A DNA stretch of 64,000 nucleotides from assembly GCA_913048435.1 (NCBI GenBank), contig CAJWWC010000005.1, positions 15,148 through 79,147 of the forward strand. The letters are read 5' to 3'. Origin of the DNA: an uncultured Flavobacteriales bacterium (lineage in GTDB: Bacteria > Bacteroidota > Bacteroidia > Flavobacteriales > UBA7312). The notes under the pieces were generated by a model. The model saw only the letters and a list, made by a program, of their open reading frames with translations. It searched no databases and had not been told where the DNA came from. The translations under genes were made by a program, and so were the position numbers. This document shows positions 14,986 through 60,435 of this stretch, piece by piece. The number at the start of each line of letters is the position of its first letter. Position 1 is the stretch's first letter.

Positions 14986-15657
14986 ATGGAACCAAAAAAG
15001 AACCCCAAAGTTGATTTAGAGAAAAGAAGAGGTTTATATTTACAAATCGGACTTGTAATATCCCTTTTGTTAGTTTTAGCTGCTTTTGAATATAGAACGT
15101 ACGAAAAAGTAGTAGCTTCTCTAGGCGATTTAATAATTGATGCTGAATTCGAAGAGGAGATTGAAAATACATTCAGAGAAGAAAAACCTCCACCTCCACC
15201 TCCACCTCCACCAGATGAAATAGTTATTGTTGAAGACGATGAAGAAATTGAAGAGGCAGAAATAGAAGATACTGAATCTGATGAAGATCTTGAAGTTTTC
15301 GAGGAAGAGGAAGAGACTACAGATGAAATATTTATGGTCGTTGAGGATATGCCTAGGTTTGAGGGCTGTAGTAATGAAAATTGTACGCAAACCAAGATTA
15401 TGCAATTTATAGCTAGAAAAACTAAGTACCCCCCTATTGCTAAAGAAAATAATATTACCGGCAGGGTCTTTGTGAGTTTTGTTGTCGACAAAACAGGAAT
15501 GGTTTCCAATGTTAAAATATTACGTGGTGTAGATAAATATTTGGATGCTGAGGCAGTTCGAGTAGTTTCTAGCTTGCCAAGATTTAGTCCTGGTAAACAA
15601 AGAGGCAAACCTGTTAAAGTACAATATAACGTGCCAATTAGCTTCAAACTGAATTAA
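14986..15657 (+). CDS. TonB-family energy transducer (N-terminal anchor, acidic/proline linker, TonB C-terminal domain)
   Basis: One TM helix, a P9 run followed by a D/E-rich linker, and a C-terminal domain with YPPIAKENNITGRVFVSFVVDKTG...V. Confidence 0.8.
   Translation: MEPKKNPKVDLEKRRGLYLQIGLVISLLLVLAAFEYRTYEKVVASLGDLIIDAEFEEEIENTFREEKPPPPPPPPPDEIVIVEDDEEIEEAEIEDTESDEDLEVFEEEEETTDEIFMVVEDMPRFEGCSNENCTQTKIMQFIARKTKYPPIAKENNITGRVFVSFVVDKTGMVSNVKILRGVDKYLDAEAVRVVSSLPRFSPGKQRGKPVKVQYNVPISFKLN
15187..15213 (+). repeat. Hexanucleotide tandem repeat (CCTCCA x4 plus CCA) encoding Pro9 in the TonB linker
   Basis: cctccacctccacctccacctccacca read directly from the sequence. Confidence 0.9.
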
Positions 15658-44244: not shown

Positions 44245-44694
44245 TCATAGTTGAGCTTTAGCTTCTTTCCAAAATTTTAAGGGAACAATTAACATTCCAA
44301 AACACTTACCATTTTCTTTAACTCGACTTTTATGATGTACTCTATGTGCTTTTCTTATGGCCTTGAAATAAGTTAAAGTTGTTCGTTTAAATAATTTTAT
44401 GCGTTGATGAATAAATATTTCATGTATTATAAAATATGCAAAGCCGTAAAGAGTTATACCGATGCCAACAAATAGTAATGTAGAGCCTAATATCATAAAT
44501 ACAGCTCCAGGTATAGCGAATATTAGAAAAAAAGCATCATTATTTTCAATTATTTTATTTTTATTTACTTCATGATGGTCTTTGTGTAAATTCCACAAAA
44601 ATCCGTGCATTACATATTTATGTGTAGCCCAAGCTATAAATTCCATTAACAAAAATGTAAGAATAACAATTGAAATGTTTAGAACTATATTCAT
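44245..44694 (-). CDS. crtZ: Beta-carotene 3-hydroxylase (fatty acid hydroxylase family)
   Basis: 149 aa membrane protein with the His boxes HKYVMH, HKDHH, HEIFIHQR and HRVHHK. Confidence 0.85.
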   Translation of the reverse strand: MNIVLNISIVILTFLLMEFIAWATHKYVMHGFLWNLHKDHHEVNKNKIIENNDAFFLIFAIPGAVFMILGSTLLFVGIGITLYGFAYFIIHEIFIHQRIKLFKRTTLTYFKAIRKAHRVHHKSRVKENGKCFGMLIVPLKFWKEAKAQL

Positions 44695-44703
44695 ATTAGT
44701 AAA

Positions 44704-45246
44704 TTAAGCAATTAAAACTTTGTTGTGTAAATTTGATTTTGTCTTTAAAACTCTACTTAAACATATTTTAAACCAAGGTGTAAATAAATGTGGTCTTAAT
44801 TTTATTTCATTTAATAGATCATTAACAGCTATATATCGATATTCTATTACTTCGGAAGGATTAGGTTTTGGTGTTTTATCAGAAAAACCAATAAAAACAT
44901 GATCAAGTTCATTTTCAACTAGTCCATTATTAAACGATGCATTATAAATGAAATTAAAAGCATAGAATATATCGCATTTTATACCCATTTCCTCTCTTAG
45001 TCTTCTTTCTGCAGCAAACTTAACTAATTCGTTTAATCTAGGATGGCTACAAGCTGTGTTGCTCCATAGACCTGCTGTATGATATTTGTTTAATGCACGT
45101 TTTTGTAGTAGCATTTCACCTTTGTAATTAAAAATAAAAACCGATAGAGCTCGGTGTAAAAGACCTTTTTGGTGAGCTTCAAGTTTGCCTACTTTACCAA
45201 TGTAATTATCATTTTTATCTACTAGTATAACTTGTTCTTCCATCAT
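44704..45246 (-). CDS. idi: Isopentenyl-diphosphate delta-isomerase, type 1 (Nudix fold)
   Basis: LHRALSVFIFN, WSNTACSHP and ENELDHVF motifs. Confidence 0.85.
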   Translation of the reverse strand: MMEEQVILVDKNDNYIGKVGKLEAHQKGLLHRALSVFIFNYKGEMLLQKRALNKYHTAGLWSNTACSHPRLNELVKFAAERRLREEMGIKCDIFYAFNFIYNASFNNGLVENELDHVFIGFSDKTPKPNPSEVIEYRYIAVNDLLNEIKLRPHLFTPWFKICLSRVLKTKSNLHNKVLIA

Positions 45247-45706
45247 TTAAGTTTTTAAAAATTGGCATTATAAATTGTTGTAATTCATCTGAGTTTATTG
45301 TGATATTATTCAATATAAATTGACTGTCCTCCTCCATGTTAAGTTTGTAATCTAAAATGGCAGGAGTACCGTCTTGTACACAAAATCGTAAAAATCTTAG
45401 TTCGATATCATTAGGGTAGAGACTAATCACTTTTTCTAATTGTTCTTTACCTTCTATAAACCATTTAATTTTATGTATAGGGTTAAAAGTAAATTTGCTC
45501 TGAAGTAAAATGGCGATAGCGTGGTATGTAAAATTCTTATAATCGCTTTTAATTGAGCTATTTTTAGTCAATTTATATAATTTGTTAGCCTTATTTTCTT
45601 CAAATGAGGCTTCTATGTATAATTCTCTAACCTCGGAAAGATTTAGTTCTTGCGCTTGAGTGTTAATTACAGATAAAAATAAGGATATGATTACCCAAAA
45701 TCTCAT
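45215..45706 (-). CDS. Exported helical protein of unknown function embedded in the carotenoid operon
   Basis: Signal peptide MRFWVIISLFLSVINTQAQ. There is a 4-nt ATGA overlap with the crtB stop and a 32-nt overlap with the idi start. Confidence 0.5.
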   Translation of the reverse strand: MRFWVIISLFLSVINTQAQELNLSEVRELYIEASFEENKANKLYKLTKNSSIKSDYKNFTYHAIAILLQSKFTFNPIHKIKWFIEGKEQLEKVISLYPNDIELRFLRFCVQDGTPAILDYKLNMEEDSQFILNNITINSDELQQFIMPIFKNLNDGRTSYTSR

Positions 45707-46542
45707 ATCAAATTAAATTGATTCTTGACCATGGATTGTAGCATCAAACTTATCTTATTAGAATTAGGAATTCTGATACGCTCTTGTAAAATTCTCGAAG
45801 ATGGTAAGGATTTAATCTTGCGAAATAAATTGTAATAATATATATAAGCCAAATAGACTCCTCCTCTAGAACTAAATGGTAGTTTTTTAATCCCAACAAG
45901 AGCTTCAGCGAAATCAATTTCTATATCTTCTTCTATTTTTTGTTTATCTTCTTCAGAAAAGTTAACCATATTAACTCCAGGAAAATAGGTTCTTCCAAGG
46001 TATGAAAAGTCGCTGTTAGCATCTCTTAGAAAATTAACTTTTTGAAAAGCCGAACCTAAACTCATAGCACTTGGTTTGAGAGATTCATATTGTTCTTCAT
46101 TACCTTCAACAAAAACTTTTAAGCACATTAGACCAACAACTTCGGCTGACCCTAAAATGTATTTATTGTATTTATCGGTATCATAGGTTTGCAATTCATC
46201 CAAATCCATTTCCATGCTTTGTAAGAAAGTGTTGATAAGCTCCCATTCAATGTTATAAGTGTGTACTACTTTCTGGAAACTATTTAAGATAGGGTTTAAG
46301 CTAATCTTATCTTCAATAGCATCGATAGTATCTTGTTTGAATTTGTGAAATAAACGGTGTTTATCATAGTTATGAAAGGTGTCAACTATTTCATCAGCAA
46401 AACGGACAAAACCGTAGATTCCATAGATTGGAGCATGTAATCTGTTGTCCAAGGCTTTGATGCCAAAGCTAAAACTTGTACTGTAAGCTATTGTTGTCAG
46501 CTTACTACATTTGTCAGAGACATTATCAAAAATATACTTCAT
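45703..46542 (-). CDS. crtB: Phytoene synthase
   Basis: SYSTSFSFGI, FVRFADEIVD and NFLRDANSD (the two Asp-rich regions of squalene/phytoene synthases). Confidence 0.9.
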   Translation of the reverse strand: MKYIFDNVSDKCSKLTTIAYSTSFSFGIKALDNRLHAPIYGIYGFVRFADEIVDTFHNYDKHRLFHKFKQDTIDAIEDKISLNPILNSFQKVVHTYNIEWELINTFLQSMEMDLDELQTYDTDKYNKYILGSAEVVGLMCLKVFVEGNEEQYESLKPSAMSLGSAFQKVNFLRDANSDFSYLGRTYFPGVNMVNFSEEDKQKIEEDIEIDFAEALVGIKKLPFSSRGGVYLAYIYYYNLFRKIKSLPSSRILQERIRIPNSNKISLMLQSMVKNQFNLI

Positions 46543-46544
46543 GA

Positions 46545-48017
46545 TTAGATAAGGTTAGATTCTACAATATGTTTTGCAACGACTTGCCCTGAAATAATAG
46601 AGGGTGGCACGCCTGGTCCGGGTACTGTCAGTTGGCCTGTGTAGAATAGGTTATTTATTTTCTTGTTAATGATTTTAGGTTTTAAATTTGCTGTTTGAAG
46701 AAGAGTATTTGCTAAGCCGTAAGCATTGCCTTTATAAGCATTGTAATCGTTTTCAAAATCGTTAACACAATAACTTCTTTTGTACTCAATGTGCGCTTTA
46801 ATATTTTGTCCTGTAAACTTTTCAAGTCGATTTAGCATTGTGTCAAAATATTTTTCTCTAATACTTTCAATATCTTTAAGTCCTGGTGCAATAGGCATCA
46901 AAAAGAAGATATTTTCTTTACCATCAGGAGCTACACTTGGATCCGTTTTGGATGGACAACAAACGTAAAATAGCGGTTTGTTTGGCCACTTTGGATTAGT
47001 ATAAATTTCATTAGTGTGCTGCTCAATATCTTCATCAAAAAATAAATTGTGATGGATAATTTTATTGATTTTTTTATTTACGCCAATATAAAATAATAAG
47101 CTTGAAGGGGAAAAAGTTCTTCTTTGCCAGTAACTCTCATTGTAATTTCTAAATTTTTTTGGAATTAATTGGCTGTCAACGTGGTTATAATCTGCAGAAC
47201 CGACTAGCACATCCGTTTCAAATGTTCTTTTGTCTGTGACGATTGATTGGATAGTTTTATCTTTGATGTTGACAGAATGTACAGCCTCATTGGTATGAAA
47301 TTCAACACCTTGTTCTAAACAAATTTCTTTGAAAGCATCAATGACTTTTCCAAAACCACCCATGGGGTAGAAAGTACCCTTTTTTATGCCTGAGTAAGTC
47401 ATTAGACTGTATAGGGCTGGAGTTTGGCTAGGAGCAGTTCCTAAGAATAGTACTGGAAATTCTAACAACGATTTTAAATATTTATTATTAAAATACTTAG
47501 CTACATGCTTTCTGTAAGAAGTAAATACTTGTAGTTTAAAAATATTAGAAAATAACTCAGGTTTACATACCTCTGATAGAGATAGGCCAGGTTCGTAAAC
47601 TAGCTGGTTGATTCCGAAGTCATATTTAAACTCGGCTTCTTTCATAAATTCGTCTAACTTGTAAGATGAACCCTTTTCAAAATTTTCGAACATTTCACGA
47701 ACTTCAGACCATTCAGAAGACAGTTTCATTGTTTTTTGTTGTTCAAAGATAATTTGAAATCCGGGGTTTAATTGAACAAGCTCAAAGTAGTCACTTGCTC
47801 TTTTATCAAATTGAGTAAAAAATTTATCGAATACATCTGTCATCCAATACCAGCTTGGCCCCATATCAAATGTATAGCCTTCAGCTTCAAATTGTCTAGC
47901 ACGACCGCCGATATTCGAGTTTTTTTCAAAGACACTAACTTGGTGCCCTTCTTTTGCAAGAAAGGCAGCAGTGCTTAATCCTGAAAACCCACTACCTATG
48001 ACTGAAATTTTGCTCAT
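46545..48017 (-). CDS. crtI: Phytoene desaturase
   Basis: ISVIGSGFSGLSTAAFLAKEGHQVSVFEKN FAD fold, 490 aa, C-terminal FYTGQLTVPGPGVP. Confidence 0.9.
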   Translation of the reverse strand: MSKISVIGSGFSGLSTAAFLAKEGHQVSVFEKNSNIGGRARQFEAEGYTFDMGPSWYWMTDVFDKFFTQFDKRASDYFELVQLNPGFQIIFEQQKTMKLSSEWSEVREMFENFEKGSSYKLDEFMKEAEFKYDFGINQLVYEPGLSLSEVCKPELFSNIFKLQVFTSYRKHVAKYFNNKYLKSLLEFPVLFLGTAPSQTPALYSLMTYSGIKKGTFYPMGGFGKVIDAFKEICLEQGVEFHTNEAVHSVNIKDKTIQSIVTDKRTFETDVLVGSADYNHVDSQLIPKKFRNYNESYWQRRTFSPSSLLFYIGVNKKINKIIHHNLFFDEDIEQHTNEIYTNPKWPNKPLFYVCCPSKTDPSVAPDGKENIFFLMPIAPGLKDIESIREKYFDTMLNRLEKFTGQNIKAHIEYKRSYCVNDFENDYNAYKGNAYGLANTLLQTANLKPKIINKKINNLFYTGQLTVPGPGVPPSIISGQVVAKHIVESNLI

Positions 48018-48025
48018 TTTCAGTA

Positions 48026-48718
48026 CTATGATTTTACGAATTCATAAAATTCATTTCTTGTTTTATTCGATTTAATAAATTCCCCAGTTAATTTCGAGGT
48101 TTTCATAGATGTCCCGTGGTGTCCTACGCCTCTGCATTGTACGCAGTTGTGTGAGGCTTCAATCATTACTGCCACACCTTTGTTATTATCAACAATTTTA
48201 TTGATAGCATCGTGTATTCTAACGGTAAGATTTTCTTGAATAGCACCTCTTCGAGCGTAATGTTCAACAATTCTATTCAGCTTACTTAAGCCAATAATTT
48301 GTTGGTTGATTTGAGGGATATATGCTATGTGTGCTTTTCCAATAATAGTTTGGTGGTGGTGTGAACACATTGATATAATTGGAATATTACCCTCAAAAAT
48401 GATTCCATCATATTCGTAATTGGGGAAAGTTGTAATTTTTGGAAAAGCATTGTAACGCCCTGCCCATAAGTCATTTACATAAGCTTTAGCTACTCGTTTT
48501 GGAGTTTCCATAGAGTTAGGATCGTTTTTCCAATCGCAACCCAAAGCATCTAAAAACTCACCAAATTTAACGGCTGCTTTGTCAATCATTTCAAGCTTTT
48601 CCTCATCGTTTAATGCACCGTTAATATTTATGCCATCGGCAAAGCCTATATTTCTAAGTTCAGGATTTAACTCGATGATTTGAGTTGATGATCCATTAAT
48701 AATTTTGTTATTTTCCAT
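48026..48718 (-). CDS. folE: GTP cyclohydrolase I (FolE type 1)
   Basis: METPKRVAKAY, MCSHHHQTIIGKAHIAYIP and HNCVQCRGV motifs. Confidence 0.9.
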   Translation of the reverse strand: MENNKIINGSSTQIIELNPELRNIGFADGININGALNDEEKLEMIDKAAVKFGEFLDALGCDWKNDPNSMETPKRVAKAYVNDLWAGRYNAFPKITTFPNYEYDGIIFEGNIPIISMCSHHHQTIIGKAHIAYIPQINQQIIGLSKLNRIVEHYARRGAIQENLTVRIHDAINKIVDNNKGVAVMIEASHNCVQCRGVGHHGTSMKTSKLTGEFIKSNKTRNEFYEFVKS

Positions 48719-49127
48719 AGTATTCTACAAAGTTGTTTTCTGTTTCATACAATTTTACACTGTATAATTTGTTTCCTGTAGCTATAATTTCGCTTTCTAA
48801 TTCTTCATAAATTTTTATTGCGATATTTTCAGCTGTAGTTATAGTATCTCTCATAAAGTCGACTTCAAGGTTCAAGTTTTTATGATCCATTTTGTCAACA
48901 ATTCTTTTTTTGATAATACCACTTAATAATTTCAAATCTATAACATAACCTGTTTGATTGTCAACCGAACCTTCAACTGTCACAAACAATATATAATTGT
49001 GTCCATGCCAGTTTTTGTTGGAGCACTTTCCAAATGTTTGCTCATTTTTTTTGTCAGACCAGTTTGGATTGAACAAACGATGGGCAGCATTAAACCTTTC
49101 TCTACGTATAACTTTTACGGTTTTCAT
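48708..49127 (-). CDS. 6-pyruvoyl-tetrahydropterin synthase, eukaryote-like type
   Basis: FGKCSNKNWHGHNY, DHKNLNLEV, TTENIA and LYSVKLYETENNFVEYYGK closely parallel animal PTPS as I recall it (GKCNNPNGHGHNY ... VYETDNNIVVY). The ATG at 49127 is preferred over the TTG at 49160. Confidence 0.85.
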   Translation of the reverse strand: MKTVKVIRRERFNAAHRLFNPNWSDKKNEQTFGKCSNKNWHGHNYILFVTVEGSVDNQTGYVIDLKLLSGIIKKRIVDKMDHKNLNLEVDFMRDTITTAENIAIKIYEELESEIIATGNKLYSVKLYETENNFVEYYGK

Positions 49128-49162
49128 TTTGTATAAACTTTCGTTGTTAAAATTATACAAAA
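49127..49162. promoter_or_regulatory. Operator copy 1: TTTTGTATAA-N16-TTATACAAAA (perfect 10-bp arms)
   Basis: Read directly from the sequence. It lies in the 58-bp gap between the PTPS start (49127, minus) and the SDR start (49186, plus). Confidence 0.7.
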
Positions 49163-49167
49163 ATGCT

Positions 49168-49175
49168 TAGCTTTG
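49168..49175 (+). promoter_or_regulatory. Bacteroidota-type -7 box TAGCTTTG (TAnnTTTG) for the SDR/RND transcript
   Basis: It matches the TAnnTTTG consensus but lies only 10 nt upstream of the ATG at 49186. That would imply a leaderless or near-leaderless mRNA. Confidence 0.4.
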
Positions 49176-49185
49176 CAAAAAAAAG

Positions 49186-49851
49186 ATGAAAATAATGTTA
49201 ATTGGTTCTTCAAGCGATATCGCTCGTAACCTAGTAGAAAACACAAATTCAGAGTTTGAATTTATAGAGCTAACTTCAACTCCAAACTCAGTTAATCAAC
49301 ATCAAATTGATGTACAAAATGAGGAAAGCTATCCTCAAATTGATGGTGAAATCAATGGAATAGTTTATTTTCCCGGCTCAATAAATCTAAGACCTTTTTC
49401 AAGTTTGAAGATGTCAGATTTTCAGACGGATTATGAAATTAATGTATTAGGTTTGATAAAAACATTGAAATATTATCATAAACAATTAGCCTCGGATTCA
49501 TCGGTTGTTCTTATCAGTTCTGTTGCAGCTTCTGTTGGAATGCCTTATCACGCCTCTATTTCGATGTGTAAGTCGGCTATTGAAGGACTTTGTCGTTCTC
49601 TAGCTGCCGAGTGGTCGCCGAAGGTTAGAGTTAATTGCATTGCACCATCTGTAGTACAAACTAAGTTATCTTCTCGTTTGTTTAGAACAGATGCTCAAGT
49701 AGAGCAAATGAATGTCCGTCATCCTTTGCAAAAGGTAGGTCAGCCCAAAAATATATCGGACGCTATTACTTTTTTATTATCTGATAAATCTTCTTGGATT
49801 ACGGGGCAGACTTTACACGTCGATGGCGGACTTTCTAGCCTAAAAAAATAA
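49186..49851 (+). CDS. Short-chain dehydrogenase/reductase, candidate sepiapterin/pteridine reductase
   Basis: Rossmann LIGSSSDIARNL and SDR core ISSVAAS...PYHASISMCKSAIEGL...IAPSVVQT. It is divergent from folE/PTPS. Function is inferred from context only. Confidence 0.6.
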   Translation: MKIMLIGSSSDIARNLVENTNSEFEFIELTSTPNSVNQHQIDVQNEESYPQIDGEINGIVYFPGSINLRPFSSLKMSDFQTDYEINVLGLIKTLKYYHKQLASDSSVVLISSVAASVGMPYHASISMCKSAIEGLCRSLAAEWSPKVRVNCIAPSVVQTKLSSRLFRTDAQVEQMNVRHPLQKVGQPKNISDAITFLLSDKSSWITGQTLHVDGGLSSLKK

Positions 49852-49853
49852 AT

Positions 49854-51929
49854 ATGTTTTTATTCATTTGGCGGTTTAAATACCTGCTATGTATTGTCAG
49901 TCTAATATTATTTGCCTTTTGTCTTAAACAACTACTTAATGCAAATATTTATTTTGATTCAGAAAGGATTATCAATGAATTAGAAGCTGCCAATGTGGAT
50001 ATAAATGTATTAGACGATAATAATTTAGTCTTTTTTGGACTTTCCTTTAAGGATAGTTTAAGTTATCAAGATATATTAGATGTTACGACTTTTCACAAAT
50101 CCTTGAAAAAGTCAGACTATGTAAAACGTGTTTTTAGTCTTGTAAATGACCGTCAAATTATAAATACGGGCTTGTTTCCAATCTCCAAAAAAGTATTGAA
50201 CGTAAGTGATAAAGAATCCTATATAAAGTCCATAAAAAAAATATATGCTAATGGAAATAACTTCATATCGTCTGATGGAAAGAAGTTACTTTTTTTGGTG
50301 GAAAATGTTTCTGGTCTAAGTAAAGATGATAGTCGAATCTTTATTAACTCTTTGTATGCAACGGATTTAAACAAAAATATGATTGAAGTGTTTGTTAGTG
50401 GCCGCTCCCCAAGTGAACTGTATTTCGAGAAGAAAGTCATTCAAGAATTTATAATACTTACTTTAGTTAGTGGATTTTTATGTTTTTTATTTTTATTGTT
50501 AATAACAAAAAATCTTAAGTTAGTTGTGATGACTGTATTTAGTGTCATTGCAAGTATAGTGGTGTGTTTAGGACTTTCTCAAGTTTTATTTGGAGGTATA
50601 GAATTGGTAATGATAATTACACCAGCAATCTTATTTATTGTTTGTCTTTCTGACATAATGCATTTAACCAACAAGCAATCTAATGTTACCTCATCTAAGG
50701 ATACATTCTTTATTGTGAGAATGGACACGGTTGGCAAGGCTGTCGCTTTGACTTCTATAACTACTGCTATGAGCTTTTTGACATTTTTAGTTAATGATAT
50801 AGTGCCTATTCTTCGTTTTGGTCTAATTACATCTATAGGCGTTGTTTTCACGCTTTTTATTGCCGTGTTGGTTTATGCCATAAGTGTAGATAAGAACTTT
50901 AACGAATCAAATCCTGTGAAACTTGTTCAACAATTTACAGATAGGCTAATACACTTTTTGAAAAATGGACAAAAGAGTAAAACATTTCATGTTTTTATGT
51001 CCGTACTTATATTTATTGGATTATTTGGAGTAGCTAATGTTCAAATAGATAATTATCTAACTGATGAAATAAATAAAAAATCAAATATGTATAAGCAAAC
51101 AGCTTTTTTTGATAGCCATTTTGGAGGAATAAAGCCTATCACTATTTTTTTAGATAAAGAAAATGTGATTGATTTAGATATCTTGTCACAAGTTGAAAAA
51201 TCCATTAATTCACTAGGTTTTGTTGTTGATTTTTCTAATACTAATACTACTTCTGTGATGTTAGAGCAACTAGGTTTCGCCGATCAATATTTGGTCAATA
51301 AATACTTTTACATATGTCGGTCTGGTGATGAGGGGTCGCTTGCAACTTTAAAAAAATTAAAATTATTAAAAAATGAATTTACAGCAAACGGTCTAGAATT
51401 TAATTATTCTGGAGCTGGATATTTGTTTGATATTCTAGGTAATGACCTAACTAGACAGCTTATCTACGGATTAATTATTGCTATTCTTTCTATTGGCTTA
51501 GTTTTCTTTTTATTGAACAGATTTGATTTCAATTATTTCATTATTGCCATAGTTCCAAATTTGACTCCTATCCTTGTTTGTGTAGGTTTATTATATTTGA
51601 ATGGCTTTTACTTTAGTTTGTCAAATGCATTCATTTTTACTGTAGTTTTCGGACTAATAATTGATGACTCTATTCACCTTATAAGTGCCTATGCAAGTGC
51701 TAGAAAAAGAAAAATATCAAAGTCAGATTCTTTAGATTTAGTCGTTACAAAAACAGGTGACGCTATTATCAAAACCACTTTAATTGTTATAATCTGTCTT
51801 TTTCCTCTTTCCTTTTCTGAGTTCAAGTCTGTTTCTCAGTTATCGGTAATTACGATATTGAGTGCTTTTATTGCTATATTCTTCGATTTGGTTTATTTAC
51901 CCTTAATAATCAAAAGGCTAACTAAGTAG
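49854..51929 (+). CDS. RND-superfamily (MMPL/HpnN-like, SSD-type) exporter
   Basis: 691 aa in two homologous halves. Each half has one TM helix, a large loop and five clustered TM helices. It starts 3 nt after the SDR stop. Confidence 0.7.
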   Translation: MFLFIWRFKYLLCIVSLILFAFCLKQLLNANIYFDSERIINELEAANVDINVLDDNNLVFFGLSFKDSLSYQDILDVTTFHKSLKKSDYVKRVFSLVNDRQIINTGLFPISKKVLNVSDKESYIKSIKKIYANGNNFISSDGKKLLFLVENVSGLSKDDSRIFINSLYATDLNKNMIEVFVSGRSPSELYFEKKVIQEFIILTLVSGFLCFLFLLLITKNLKLVVMTVFSVIASIVVCLGLSQVLFGGIELVMIITPAILFIVCLSDIMHLTNKQSNVTSSKDTFFIVRMDTVGKAVALTSITTAMSFLTFLVNDIVPILRFGLITSIGVVFTLFIAVLVYAISVDKNFNESNPVKLVQQFTDRLIHFLKNGQKSKTFHVFMSVLIFIGLFGVANVQIDNYLTDEINKKSNMYKQTAFFDSHFGGIKPITIFLDKENVIDLDILSQVEKSINSLGFVVDFSNTNTTSVMLEQLGFADQYLVNKYFYICRSGDEGSLATLKKLKLLKNEFTANGLEFNYSGAGYLFDILGNDLTRQLIYGLIIAILSIGLVFFLLNRFDFNYFIIAIVPNLTPILVCVGLLYLNGFYFSLSNAFIFTVVFGLIIDDSIHLISAYASARKRKISKSDSLDLVVTKTGDAIIKTTLIVIICLFPLSFSEFKSVSQLSVITILSAFIAIFFDLVYLPLIIKRLTK

Positions 51930-55616: not shown

Positions 55617-55652
55617 TTTTGTATAGATTTTTTTGAATATTGTTATACAAAA
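55617..55652. promoter_or_regulatory. Operator copy 2: TTTTGTATAG-N16-TTATACAAAA, flanked by extra TATACA (55601-55606) and TGTATA (55653-55658) half-sites
   Basis: Read directly from the sequence. It lies between two divergent -7 boxes. Confidence 0.7.
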
Positions 55653-55711: not shown

Positions 55712-55876
55712 ATGCCAAGAAAGAAAAAGCAGAAAATATCTATTGAAGAAATTAAGAAAAGAACTCCAAAAATCATTTTTTATACCGATAAAATGAAAAT
55801 TAATTTAAAATCGTTGAGTAGTCTTGATTTTTGGTTTGATAAGTATCCTAATGGAAAATACATAGTTAATGACTAA
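55712..55876 (+). CDS. Small basic protein (54 aa), unknown function, translationally coupled to the regulator
   Basis: Manual translation gives MPRKKKQKISIEEIKKRTPKIIFYTDKMKINLKSLSSLDFWFDKYPNGKYIVND. It is below the ORF-track size cut-off. Its stop overlaps the regulator ATG by 8 nt (AATGACTAA). A 55-codon open frame is notable in AT-rich DNA. Confidence 0.45.
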   Translation: MPRKKKQKISIEEIKKRTPKIIFYTDKMKINLKSLSSLDFWFDKYPNGKYIVND

Positions 55877-56750
55877 GTACAGTATAGATCAGTTTTCACA
55901 AATCACTGGGATAACTAAGTTTGTGTTACGAACTTGGGAAAATCGTTATGGCTTTCTCAAGGCTGAACGTACTGATACCAAAATACGTTATTATACTGAT
56001 GAATTACTTGTTCGGGCATTAAATTCTAACTATTTACTTGAAAATGGATACAAAATATCTGCAATTTCTAAGCTTGATGACCTACAAATCAAAATTAAGG
56101 TTGATGAAATCAAAAATAGTGATGATGACAACTCTGTAGAATCATACTACATAGCTAGACTAATTAGCTCTGCACTTGATTTTGATTCTAATCTTTTTAA
56201 CACAATCTATGACAATGGTGTAAAAGAACTAGGTGTGCTTGAGTTTTATAAATCAGTTTTATTAGTAACCTTTTCAAAGATTGGTATATTTTGGTTAACT
56301 AACAGGATAGCTCCTTCGCAAGAACATTTTTTATCCGAATTAGTTAAACAAAAAATAGGAGCAGCAGCTGATTTTTATTCATCTAATAACTCAACGAAAG
56401 GGGCTTGGCTTTTATTTTTGCCTGAGAATGAATTTCATGAAATTGGATTACTATTTGCTAAATTTTTGTTAATTAAAAATGGTTTTGAAGTTATTTATTT
56501 GGGATCAAACGTACCTTATGGTTCATTATTAGAATTGGCTGAAAAAAAACAAATAGATAATGTTTTATTCTTTTCTGTTTCTAATACATCAAAAAGTAAC
56601 TTAGACTTTACTATCAATTATCTAAACAAGTCGTTTCCGACTGCCAAACATTTTTTGGTTGCAAATAGCCTTGATATCAATTTTCTTACCAAAGAACATG
56701 ATATTACAATTCTTGAAAATCTTGACAGTTTTATTGATATTATTTCATAG
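55869..56750 (+). CDS. CarH/LitR-type MerR-family regulator with an adenosylcobalamin-binding photoreceptor domain
   Basis: MerR HTH (YSIDQFSQITGITKFVLRTWENRYG). W-x9-EH motif (FWLTNRIAPSQEH). B12 motif ExHxxG (ENEFHEIG) followed by VIYLGSNVP. Confidence 0.8.
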   Translation: MTKYSIDQFSQITGITKFVLRTWENRYGFLKAERTDTKIRYYTDELLVRALNSNYLLENGYKISAISKLDDLQIKIKVDEIKNSDDDNSVESYYIARLISSALDFDSNLFNTIYDNGVKELGVLEFYKSVLLVTFSKIGIFWLTNRIAPSQEHFLSELVKQKIGAAADFYSSNNSTKGAWLLFLPENEFHEIGLLFAKFLLIKNGFEVIYLGSNVPYGSLLELAEKKQIDNVLFFSVSNTSKSNLDFTINYLNKSFPTAKHFLVANSLDINFLTKEHDITILENLDSFIDIIS

Positions 56751-57158: not shown

Positions 57159-57194
57159 ATTTGTATAACAAAATTAGCAAAAAGTTATACAATA
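57159..57194. promoter_or_regulatory. Operator copy 3: ATTTGTATAA-N16-TTATACAATA, with extra half-sites TTGTATA (57153-57159) and TTATACAA (57219-57226)
   Basis: Read directly from the sequence. It lies in the divergent region between the hypothetical gene (minus) and the SRPBCC gene (plus). Confidence 0.65.
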
Positions 57195-57232: not shown

Positions 57233-57694
57233 ATGGCGCATTATCAACTTCTAAAAGAACAGTTCCTAAAAACTGATATTGACATTATTTGGGATTTTGC
57301 ATCATCTCCAGCAAATCTTAAGGAAATCACTCCCGATTATATGTTATTTGATATTACATCAAAAGATTTGCCTGAAAAAATGTACCCAGGAATGATTATA
57401 ACTTATAAAGTTTCCCCTTTGTTTAATATTAAGATGAATTGGGTAACCGAAATAACACAGGTTAAAGACAAACATTTTTTTATTGATGAGCAGCGTTTAG
57501 GTCCTTACAAAATGTGGCATCATCAGCATTTTTTCGAAGAAAAAGATGGTGGTGTTTTAATGACTGATATTGTCACTTATATTCCTCCATTTGGTATACT
57601 TGGTGACATTGCTAATGTTGTGCTTATCAAAAAACAGTTGAAAGGTATTTTTGACTATAGATTTAAAGTAATGGATGAAAAATTTAATCAATAG
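57233..57694 (+). CDS. SRPBCC-superfamily ligand-binding protein
   Basis: 153 aa. The pattern ...PGMIITYKVSP...LGPYKMWHHQHFFEE... is typical of the cyclase/dehydrase-like SRPBCC proteins found next to photolyase genes. The assignment is from memory. Confidence 0.55.
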   Translation: MAHYQLLKEQFLKTDIDIIWDFASSPANLKEITPDYMLFDITSKDLPEKMYPGMIITYKVSPLFNIKMNWVTEITQVKDKHFFIDEQRLGPYKMWHHQHFFEEKDGGVLMTDIVTYIPPFGILGDIANVVLIKKQLKGIFDYRFKVMDEKFNQ

Positions 57695-57696
57695 TC

Positions 57697-58176
57697 ATGA
57701 AGAGACCTTGGAATATTATTAGCCCTCCTGTTTATAGTTTAGTAACTTATGACGAACAGGGAAAAGTCAATATGAATATTTGCACTTATGTTTCGGCAGT
57801 TAGTATGAAGCCTAAAATGTATTCTGTTGCCATAGATTATACTTCCAAAACCTATAAGAATTTAGAAAAATCATCGAAAGTTGTTCTTCAGTTGTTAAGT
57901 GCTTCTAATCTCAAGGTTATAAGGAAATTAGGTAAAATTAGTGGTAAGCTATTTGACAAAGATCGTTATCTAAACTCATACAATTTACTTCATTCTTGGA
58001 AAGATTACAATGTGTTAAAAGAAACTTGTGCATTAATTGAGTTAGAAAAAAAATCGGTAGTCAATAATCATGGTGACCATGCTATTTTTTTCTTTGACGT
58101 TACTGCCTTTAAGACCATTTCTGAAAAAAATGTCCTTTCATTTCAAGACTTAGTAGATAACAGAATAATACTATAA
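57697..58176 (+). CDS. Flavin reductase-like (FMN-binding split barrel) protein
   Basis: 159 aa. VYSLVTYDEQGKVNMNICTYVSAVSMKP resembles the PF01613-type N-terminus. Confidence 0.6.
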   Translation: MKRPWNIISPPVYSLVTYDEQGKVNMNICTYVSAVSMKPKMYSVAIDYTSKTYKNLEKSSKVVLQLLSASNLKVIRKLGKISGKLFDKDRYLNSYNLLHSWKDYNVLKETCALIELEKKSVVNNHGDHAIFFFDVTAFKTISEKNVLSFQDLVDNRIIL

Positions 58177-58178
58177 TT

Positions 58179-58811
58179 ATGCATCTAACAAAAGAGCTAA
58201 TACAGCAAACCTCACGAATCAAGCGCCTCAATATAATTAATTCTATTACCGGGGTTAAGCCTGCAAATTTAATTGCTAGTATTTCTGAGATTGGGCATAG
58301 TAACTTAGCTATCTTTAGCTCTGTAGTCCATTTGGGAAGCAATCCTGCTCTTTTGGGTTTTATTTTACGACCTCAGCACGAAATTAGGAGGGATACTTAT
58401 GATAATATCATGCAAACGAAATATTATACTATTAATCATATTCCATCTGAATATGTTAAAAATGCTCATTATACATCGGCTAAATTTGAAAAGGGTGATT
58501 CAGAATTTGAAAGGTGCAAGTTTACCGAAGAATATTTATTTGATTTTAATGCACCTTTTGTTAAAGAAAGCCGAGCCAAGATTGGCTTAAAGTTAGAAGA
58601 AATGTTACCCATAGAGCTGAATAAATGTGTGATGGTTATTGGTTCCATACAGCATTTATGGGTTGATGATATCGCAGTCGAAGACGATGGTCAAATCAAT
58701 TTAGAGTTGTTAGATGATATTGGAATTGGAGGTTTGAATAGTTACTATAAATTAAAGCGTATTGCTCAGTTTCCCTATGCAAGAGTCAATGAATTACCTG
58801 ATTTTAAGTAG
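58179..58811 (+). CDS. Flavin reductase-like domain protein (second, longer paralogue type)
   Basis: 210 aa, with INSITGVKPANLIASISEIGHSNLAIFSSVVHLGSNP. Confidence 0.55.
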   Translation: MHLTKELIQQTSRIKRLNIINSITGVKPANLIASISEIGHSNLAIFSSVVHLGSNPALLGFILRPQHEIRRDTYDNIMQTKYYTINHIPSEYVKNAHYTSAKFEKGDSEFERCKFTEEYLFDFNAPFVKESRAKIGLKLEEMLPIELNKCVMVIGSIQHLWVDDIAVEDDGQINLELLDDIGIGGLNSYYKLKRIAQFPYARVNELPDFK

Positions 58812-58955
58812 ATGATGAGAAAGCCTCTGCCAAATAAAAACTGTTTGGTTTGTCTAAAACCTTTTTCTTGGCGTAAGAAGTGGGAACGGGTTTGGGATGA
58901 TGTAAAATATTGCAGTGAACGTTGCAGAAGAAATAAAAATAACAAGAATGAATAG
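58812..58955 (+). CDS. DUF2256 small Cys4 protein
   Basis: Manual translation gives [47 protein letters not shown] (47 aa, C-x2-C-x19-C-x3-C). The WRKKW...VKYCS..C signature matches my memory of DUF2256. It is below the ORF-track cut-off. Confidence 0.7.
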
Positions 58956-60435
58956 TGTTAATATAATTTTTCCTAATCAGCTTTTTAAGCACAGTGATTT
59001 ATTGAATAATACTTACCCTGTATTTCTAGTTGAGGAATATTTATTTTTTAATCACTATCAATTTCACAAGCAAAAATTAGCCTTTCACAGAGCAAGTATG
59101 CAGTTTTATAAATCTTATCTACAAGATTTAGGCAAGACGGTTAATTATATTTCGGCCATAGATTCTAATTCGGATATTCGCAGACTTTTGAAAAAGTTAA
59201 TTTCTGAGGGTGTTAAAGAAATTTATTTGATTAATCCTGTTGACTATTGGTTAGAAAAACGAATTTCGAATGCTACTAAAGATATCCAATGTGTCTTTTA
59301 TGAAAGCCCTTATTTCATTAATCAGTCTGACGAGTATTCTGAATTTTTCAAAACAACAAAAAAGAAGTTTTTTCAAACCTCATTTTATATAGAACAACGT
59401 AAAAAATTAGGTATTTTACTAGAAAAAAATTCTTCTCCAATAGGGGGCAAGTGGAGTTATGATACAGAAAACAGAAAGAAATATCCAAAAGGTAAAACAC
59501 CACCTAAAATTACTGAAATTGAGTCCAATGATTTTTACATTGAGGCAGTAAGTTATGTCAAAAGCAATTTTTCTGATAATCCTGGAGAGTTATCTCAGAC
59601 TCCAATTTATCCCAATGATCATCAGCAATCTATTGAATGGCTTAATGATTTTTTAGACCAACGATTTCATGACTTTGGTATTTATGAAGATGCTATCGTA
59701 GATTCAGAACATTTCCTTAATCACAGTGTTCTTACGCCAATGTTAAACGTCGGTTTGCTAACACCTTTACAAATTATTGATAGTGTCTTAGAATACACCA
59801 AACAAAATGATATACCTTTAAATTCTTTGGAGGGCTTCATACGACAAATCATTGGATGGAGAGAGTTCATTAGAGGTATCTATGTGGCCAAAGGAACAGA
59901 AGAAAGGAATCGTAATTTTTTTCAGCACAAACGAAAAATACCCCCATCTTTTTATGATGGCACAACTGGTATTGTTCCTATTGATACGACTATACATAAA
60001 TTATTAAAAACAGGTTATGCCCATCACATTGAGCGACTAATGATATTAGGTAATTTTATGTTGTTATGTGAGTTTGATCCTGATGAAATATACCGTTGGT
60101 TCATGGAGCTATTCATAGACTCTTATGATTGGGTAATGGTACCAAATGTATATGGCATGAGTCAATTTGCTGATGGTGGTTTAATGTCCACTAAGCCTTA
60201 TATTAGTAGTAGTAATTACTTAAAAAAAATGAGTAATTACAAAAAGGCTCAATGGCAAGAAATATGGGATGCTTTATATTGGCGTTTCATAAATAAGCAT
60301 AGAGAATTATTTAATAAAAACATTAGAATGAAATTTATGGTTTCTATGTATGATAAAATGTTGACTCAAAAAAAAGAAAAATTCGTCATTATTGCAGACA
60401 ATTATTTTAAGTCTTTAGACGTTGACCCCAATTAA
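58948..60435 (+). CDS. Cryptochrome/photolyase-related protein of the COG3046 / FeS-BCP ((6-4) photolyase PhrB/CryB-like) family, without the cluster cysteines
   Basis: IFPNQLF start, [30 protein letters not shown] and [12 protein letters not shown] motifs. The ATG at 58948 ([13 protein letters not shown]) overlaps the DUF2256 stop by 8 nt and is preferred over 58915. Confidence 0.8.

Follow-up and report, generated by a model that had tools for sequence, protein, structure and literature searches.

An animal-type PTPS gene and a second folE in a predicted light regulon of a marine Flavobacteriales bacterium

Pterin genes at the head of a carotenoid operon

The DNA analyzed here is a stretch of 64,000 nucleotides (the window; positions 15,148 to 79,147 of contig CAJWWC010000005.1, assembly GCA_913048435.1) from the metagenome-derived genome of an uncultured marine Flavobacteriales bacterium, an assembly of 1.24 Mb that is 66% complete. 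The system in question consists of three genes set around a palindromic sequence. These code for a PTPS-II-type 6-pyruvoyl-tetrahydropterin synthase (PTPS, 139 aa; positions 49127 to 48708, minus strand; PF01242, 117 bits), a second GTP cyclohydrolase I (FolE2, 230 aa; 48026 to 48718, minus strand; PF01227, 161 bits), and an atypical short-chain dehydrogenase/reductase (SDR, 221 aa; 49186 to 49851, plus strand; PF13561, 139 bits). Domain searches find all three where a preliminary description of this DNA, made without database searches, had located them.

The minus-strand genes run in the order PTPS, FolE2, crtI, crtB, a 163-aa unknown protein, idi, crtZ, and a 131-aa unknown protein, and their junctions are overlaps or gaps of 2 to 11 nt. 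PTPS and FolE2 overlap by 11 nt, crtI follows FolE2 after 8 nt, and crtB follows crtI after 2 nt; because these junctions are so tight, we strongly infer that the PTPS, FolE2, and crt genes are co-transcribed. The two pterin genes are indeed the first two of the operon, as had been claimed, but PTPS is first and FolE2 second, not the reverse.

The SDR gene is divergent from PTPS across a 58-bp spacer that carries one palindromic operator, TGTATAA-N16-TTATACA (49130 to 49159), in agreement with the preliminary description. The PTPS start is probably the ATG at 49127, where the orthologues begin; a TTG at 49160 would place the operator within the gene. On the SDR side, TAGCTTTG at 49168-49175 matches the Bacteroidetes -7 box consensus and would belong to the SDR promoter. 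A second operator copy with one mismatch (55620 to 55649) lies between a fasciclin/GPx/SOUL/Fpg/Nudix gene string and a gene for a CarH/LitR-type regulator, and a third copy without mismatch (57162 to 57191) lies upstream of a flavin-reductase/photolyase unit. Exact TGTATAA-N10-20-TTATACA palindromes number two in the window against 0.00 expected from 100 shuffles, and the three window copies are the only ones in the assembled genome with a spacer of 16 and at most one mismatch; three further one-mismatch palindromes with spacers of 15 or 17 are on other contigs. In more than 12 orthologous loci, the operator upstream of PTPS keeps both arms intact or with a single changed base, and its spacer is variable.

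The regulator (55869 to 56750, plus strand) has a MerR helix-turn-helix and B12-binding domains by domain search and scores 76 bits on the CarH model NF052513, below its cutoff of 400. A MerR plus B12-binding regulator together with a repeated operator at predicted target promoters has the makeup of a CarH/LitR regulon. As first proposed, the PTPS and a FolE, here a second copy, do head the crt operon behind a conserved operator, and their control by light is predicted. In genus g4, a Fas-GPx-PTPS-crtI-crtB string follows the operator beside carH (L035, L037), whereas the SDR and the MMPL transporter gene that follows it (see below) are under an operator of their own (L050-L052), and FolE2 is located elsewhere in two of the three genomes. 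FolE2 stands alone behind the operator in further related assemblies (L012, L016). Genome G026 has the palindrome in an N17 form, ahead of genes for PTPS-FolE, a small protein, SOUL, and a long aromatic amino acid hydroxylase (PAH; L018); there the SDR faces crtI across a separate operator (L060). Because each relocated unit retains its operator, what ties PTPS and FolE to the carotenoid genes is likely regulation and not metabolism. Both are stable members of this regulon, the light dependence of which we infer from the operators and the regulator. We also note that at L012 (4936-6745) and L016 (6846-8663) the lone FolE2 is divergent from a 339- to 348-aa extended SDR of the epimerase/3-beta-hydroxysteroid dehydrogenase type.

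The PTPS is of the animal type. The published signatures are C-x5-HGH for PTPS-II, C-x3-HGH for PTPS-I/QueD, and E-x-x-HGH for PTPS-III (PMC5041015), and the active site here (His16, Cys35-x5-His41-Gly-His43, Asp81-His82, Glu100, and Glu128) reads C35-SNKNW-H41-G-H43, which is the PTPS-II form; the PTPS-III Glu position is occupied by Lys (K-N-W-HGH). Full-length HMMER alignments to 3i2b and 1b66 match the human (E = 7e-34) and rat (E = 2e-33) enzymes, with the catalytic Cys, Asp-His, and Glu and the three Zn-binding His residues all identical, whereas E. coli QueD matches at an E value of only 2e-4. The protein is a member of family TIGR00039 and scores 65 bits on TIGR03367, below the cutoff of 89. 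The motifs on which the animal likeness was initially argued, GKCSNKNWHGHNY and LYSVKLYETENNFVEYYGK, are present in the translation, and the assignment to PTPS-II over QueD or PTPS-III stands. With its catalytic residues fully conserved, the enzyme is expected to form 6-pyruvoyl-tetrahydropterin.

FolE2 is a more divergent protein, and scores under every NCBIfam FolE cutoff (171 against an equivalog cutoff of 202). E. coli FolE matches it at an E value of 1e-33, with Cys118, His120/121, and Cys192 aligned to residues that we take to be the Zn-site ligands of the E. coli enzyme. Its family membership and these Cys/His/Cys positions are those of a GTP cyclohydrolase I, the predicted activity. 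FolE2 is only 38% identical to the housekeeping FolE of the same genome, and the two are deeply split in the tree, in which the FolE2 clade also includes Pseudomonadota-labeled contigs and one phage-like contig.

That housekeeping FolE is paired with a PTPS between mqnB and fabD on another contig (C16; L002:1495-2502), and the PTPS and FolE of the operon are thus extra copies. Since the housekeeping PTPS shares the Cx5HGH motif and the animal-like C terminus, the animal-like look is a trait of the lineage and is not peculiar to the carotenoid-linked enzyme. Two PTPS genes are present in 13 of 15 genomes of the same bacterial family. In the PTPS tree a supported clade unites the housekeeping copies of several families and leaves out the light-linked ones. 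Orthologues of the housekeeping pair form a clade across the Flavobacteriales, including genomes without a PAH.

Several other members of these protein families were noted among the contigs surveyed. The phage-like contig (L020:1-16663) has many small co-directional open reading frames, a GIY-YIG/NUMOD3 endonuclease, a FolE2-type gene (63% identical), and a 191-aa COG0720 protein; the last two are probably a 7-deazaguanine module. A Cys-less COG0720 protein of 156 to 166 aa, with IHGY for HGH, is encoded immediately upstream of a FolE2-type gene at L023 (4823-6154), L025, and L028, with the light-operon palindrome upstream of it at L023; the L028 assembly is labeled Gammaproteobacteria. A 150-aa COG0720 type with a QueD-like Cx3HGH is encoded in several Flavobacteriales (L039, L042, L044, L048, and L114), and QueC was not found in the four searched genomes that carry it (G017-G020).

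The phytoene desaturase gene crtI (46545 to 48017) has Amino_oxidase and NAD_binding_8 domains and is syntenic in relatives; it is followed by crtB for phytoene synthase (45703 to 46542; PF00494, 118 bits), the 163-aa protein gene (45215 to 45706), idi for a NUDIX-type isopentenyl-diphosphate isomerase (44704 to 45246; PF00293), and the beta-carotene hydroxylase gene crtZ (44245 to 44694; PF04116), all on the minus strand. The 163-aa protein is conserved and syntenic in relatives, and Pfam and NCBIfam searches gave no match to it. The unit behind the third operator (57233 to 60435, plus strand) codes for an unknown protein of 153 aa, two flavin-reductase-like proteins, and a DPRP-type photolyase. 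A 434-aa class-I-type photolyase/cryptochrome with DNA_photolyase and FAD_binding_7 domains is encoded roughly 1 kb beyond the 3' end of the window (G000:C5:80159-81361); its gene, some 16 kb from the PTPS operon, shows conserved synteny in relatives. The entire flavobacterial locus is also found on a contig labeled "Methanobacteriota archaeon" (L008; NZVG01000013.1), with pterin, crt, and SDR proteins 82 to 93% identical; this contig is almost certainly mis-binned.

The divergent SDR and its partners

The SDR had been described as being of the sepiapterin-reductase type, but neither its residues nor its PDB matches support this. It has His122-x6-Lys129, with Ile125 at the classical Tyr position; Ile125 aligns with the catalytic Tyr of the solved SDRs 5t5q and 4bms (HMMER) and with that of a canonical SDR encoded elsewhere in this genome (BLAST). 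Its Gly motif is degenerate, reading I-G-S-S-S-D-I-A where TGxxxGxG would be expected, and the Ser-Tyr-Lys/YxxxK arrangement of sepiapterin reductase and the classical ketoreductases is lacking. The Tyr position is occupied by I, V, or T in all 41 examined members of the SDR family, in which Lys129 and His122 are invariant. The best 60 PDB matches include no sepiapterin reductase (SR), pteridine reductase (PTR1), or dihydropteridine reductase (DHPR), only generic SDRs; the pteridine-reductase model NF006598 ranks 25th at 79 bits, against a cutoff of 288; and homologue and protein-atlas searches returned generic names only. Judged by these residues and matches, the SDR is not of the sepiapterin-reductase type and belongs to an uncharacterized family with an invariant His-x6-Lys.

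The SDR is followed, 2 nt past its stop, by an MMPL/HAE3-type RND transporter gene (49854 to 51929, plus strand; PF03176, TIGR00921), and this pair is kept in families f1 and f3 and in one f15 genome. The G-x3-D-I-A/C form of the Gly motif is found in the lineages with MMPL downstream and in a few close relatives, whereas other lineages keep GxxxGIG, which suggests that the role of the SDR may have changed in the MMPL-coupled lineages specifically.

The SDR family is present in 107 of 201 sampled Flavobacteriales genomes, and the genes within 7 kb were surveyed at 40 sampled loci. Class-I photolyase is the most frequent of the neighbors (26 loci), followed by CarH (18), crtI (14), DPRP photolyase (13), flavin-reductase-like proteins (11), GPx (10), PTPS and FolE (9 each), and MMPL (6). 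Two other families (f16/f12) have complete genomes in which one strand carries CarH and crtI-crtB-idi-PTPS-FolE-SDR-flavin reductase-photolyase, so that idi adjoins PTPS directly; in one such genome (G195, L093) the genes from crtI on overlap or are 1 to 7 nt apart, and a variant (L094) has PTPS-SDR-photolyase without FolE. Relatives of the last flavin-reductase gene of the window's photolyase unit likewise adjoin the SDR in other Flavobacteriales. A second PTPS is located elsewhere in all five such genomes checked and a second FolE in four; in the fifth (G135), the sole FolE lies outside the operon. No Biopterin_H gene is present in the four of these that belong to family f16.

The proposed link of PTPS, FolE, and this SDR family thus extends beyond the present genome, to an operon ending in photolyase in other Flavobacteriales families. 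A reading in which the SDR is unrelated to the pterin genes, to which the synteny with MMPL at the family level had pointed, was revised after this order-wide survey. The module is thus real and recurrent, and it is independent of PAH.

Readings of the module

The reading we favor, at a probability of roughly 0.55, is that the locus is one lineage's version of a recurrent light-regulon pterin module of the Flavobacteriales, in which the extra FolE and PTPS-II would raise a biopterin-class pterin in the light. A CarH/LitR-type B12-using repressor would occupy the TGTATAA-N16-TTATACA operators in the dark and depart in the light, and its release would turn on three units: PTPS-FolE-crtI-crtB-idi-crtZ, SDR-MMPL, and the flavin-reductase/photolyase unit. 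Carotenoid, peroxidase, DNA-glycosylase, and photolyase genes would be induced alongside the extra FolE, which would convert GTP to dihydroneopterin triphosphate, and the extra PTPS-II-type enzyme, which would convert this to 6-pyruvoyl-tetrahydropterin. Light would then raise flux to a biopterin-class pterin, neither folate nor queuosine, during carotenoid synthesis. These first two pterin steps are well supported by the conserved residues of the two predicted enzymes. The best genomic candidate for the next step is the His-x6-Lys SDR, since it shares an operon with PTPS and FolE in other families; it could not act in the manner of sepiapterin reductase, and it is coupled to an exporter in this lineage. 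The pterin is most likely used in sunlight defense or photorepair, where it could be associated with photolyase, act as a reductant or antioxidant, or serve as a screening pigment. An ordinary supply of hydroxylase cofactor is less likely, since it is the photolyase neighborhood that persists.

Several points weigh against this interpretation. The genome is just 66% complete. The SDR is without the catalytic Tyr and here also without the second Gly of the cofactor motif, so there is no credible enzyme at this locus for the step after PTPS. In family f1, relocation of PTPS and FolE leaves the SDR beside MMPL or crt. Likeness to the rat enzyme has misled before, in the case of a Synechococcus PTPS-I (PMC5041015). 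The PTPS tree is poorly resolved and lends no support to a single ancient "light" paralogue, the protein being too short for the tree to settle whether one duplication gave rise to all light copies.

A bolder extension, which we offer tentatively, is that these genes form an undescribed sunlight pathway in which a non-folate pterin derived from PTPS-II is processed by a new class of SDR, one that uses a catalytic His-x6-Lys instead of Tyr-x3-Lys. This pterin might be the chromophore or reductant of the co-operonic photolyase, or a radical-trapping or UV-screening compound formed along with the carotenoids, and its export by MMPL is possible in the small-genome marine lineages.

About as plausible as that extension is a narrower view in which the pterin unit is PTPS and FolE only. 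In this lineage the SDR would instead work with the MMPL exporter in a light-induced envelope module of its own, with a lipid or carotenoid as substrate. The 2-nt spacing of SDR and MMPL, their shared operator in genus g4 and joint presence in f3, the concentration of the degenerate Gly motif in MMPL-linked lineages and a few close relatives, and the enoyl-reductase-type model that is the top Pfam match of the SDR would all fit such a module. However, MMPL is near only 6 of 40 SDR loci, compared with 26 for photolyase and 9 for PTPS, and the His-x6-Lys core is identical across lineages.

The preliminary description had instead seen in FolE, PTPS, and the divergent SDR the classical three-step tetrahydrobiopterin (BH4) pathway, with the SDR as sepiapterin reductase. 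Its FolE and PTPS-II steps are supported, but the SDR step is not, the enzyme being Tyr-less and separable from PTPS and FolE. Three enzyme classes do surround one operator, and PTPS-FolE-SDR are translationally coupled in f16/f12 genomes, but the substitution of the Tyr here and in all 41 relatives, the degenerate Gly motif of this lineage, the absence of SR, PTR1, and DHPR from the best PDB matches, the low pteridine-reductase score, and the genomes (genus g4, G026) in which the SDR lies apart from PTPS and FolE make the complete classical route improbable.

We regard it as similarly improbable that the extra PTPS and FolE supply a BH4-type cofactor to a PAH. Such an enzyme, a possible biopterin user, is encoded on contig C7 (L049:6096-8500) as a 578-aa protein (NF010657, 784 bits; PDB 7vgm, E = 1.9e-160), and its stop overlaps the start of a canonical 223-aa SDR (TGASRGIG, YSSSK), downstream of purL. 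This SDR, fused to the PAH operon, would reduce or recycle the cofactor, and the purL-PAH-SDR arrangement is kept in all seven further f1 genomes checked; the operator-headed string of G026, in which PTPS and FolE are followed by a small protein, SOUL, and PAH, also favors a connection. But there is no operator near the organism's own PAH, pterin-4a-carbinolamine dehydratase was not found in family f1, and the housekeeping PTPS-FolE pair is already present. As a general explanation, cofactor supply to PAH is rejected on the four f16 genomes that have the operon but no Biopterin_H. The housekeeping pair, the long PAH, and the canonical SDR of the PAH operon had all been missed in the preliminary description.

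Slightly less probable still is that the pair boosts folate, either for the methenyltetrahydrofolate (MTHF) antenna of photolyase or to replace photodegraded folate, with PTPS as a bypass of dihydroneopterin aldolase (FolB). The class-I-type photolyase just past the window, the FolE2 genes that stand alone behind the operator in some relatives (L012, L016), and the light-induced folE of Pseudomonas (PMC9758184) are in keeping with this. However, the bypass role is rejected, since the ExxHGH motif is absent, K-N-W-HGH being found instead, and FolB is found in 22 of 26 relatives, although a search of the 66%-complete genome studied here did not find it; furthermore, the PTPS-II reaction would divert dihydroneopterin triphosphate from folate. 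The bypass, like a QueD role, appears unlikely from the motif and gene content. Finally, a QueD function in queuosine or 7-deazaguanine synthesis, for which there are the Pfam and TIGR00039 memberships and the FolE2-type gene of the phage-like contig L020, is rejected as very improbable, given the Cx5HGH in place of Cx3HGH, the far better match to human PTPS than to E. coli QueD, the sub-cutoff TIGR03367 score, and the lack of a genuine QueC in the 26 relatives (a search that did not extend to the PAH-less f16 genomes; its top score, 29 bits, fell on other ATPases).

Marine Flavobacteriales are major heterotrophs of the sunlit ocean, and their known responses to light are proteorhodopsin, carotenoids, and photolyases. 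If the favored reading of a light-raised, biopterin-class pterin is true, then a light-switched pterin branch would be a new metabolite class in bacterial photoprotection or photorepair, a function would be gained for an SDR family that roughly half the sampled Flavobacteriales genomes encode, and there would be a reason for the two animal-type PTPS genes of many Flavobacteriales. The question is directly testable: complete genomes, possibly of cultured strains, carry the module as a single tight operon.

Comparison with known systems

De novo synthesis of tetrahydrobiopterin by GTP cyclohydrolase I, PTPS-II, and sepiapterin reductase is known in animals, in Chlorobium, and in some cyanobacteria. 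The present system has the same first two enzymes, with a PTPS that has the Cx5HGH motif and every catalytic residue and can be aligned over its whole length with the human and rat proteins. It differs in that no sepiapterin-reductase-type enzyme is linked to it, the associated SDR being Tyr-less, and in that the genes are second copies, placed behind a predicted light operator and joined to a carotenoid operon. QueD (Cx3HGH) and PTPS-III (ExxHGH) have a common fold and Zn-binding His triad with this PTPS, but the motif here is Cx5HGH and their expected context is missing, with QueC not found and FolB present in relatives. Full-text literature searches found no paper describing this gene arrangement.

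The B12-dependent control of carotenogenesis by CarH/LitR in Myxococcus, Thermus, and Bacillus likewise involves a gene for a MerR plus B12-binding repressor near crt and repeated operators at divergent promoters. The predicted operator here is lineage specific in sequence, and the predicted regulon adds pterin enzymes, an RND exporter, GPx, SOUL, and Fpg.

The closest precedent for light-induced pterin genes is folM-folE-folX of Pseudomonas, which is induced by light under a class II LitR (PMC9758184). Both systems have a CarH/LitR-family regulator, a second GTP cyclohydrolase I, a pterin side-chain enzyme, an SDR, and photolyase genes, although the light switching of the flavobacterial genes is predicted. 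The Pseudomonas genes code for the FolX epimerase and a canonical FolM, of the tetrahydromonapterin route, whereas the flavobacterial locus has a PTPS-II type and a Tyr-less SDR, its regulator bears B12-binding domains, and its pterin genes are predicted to be co-transcribed with crt.

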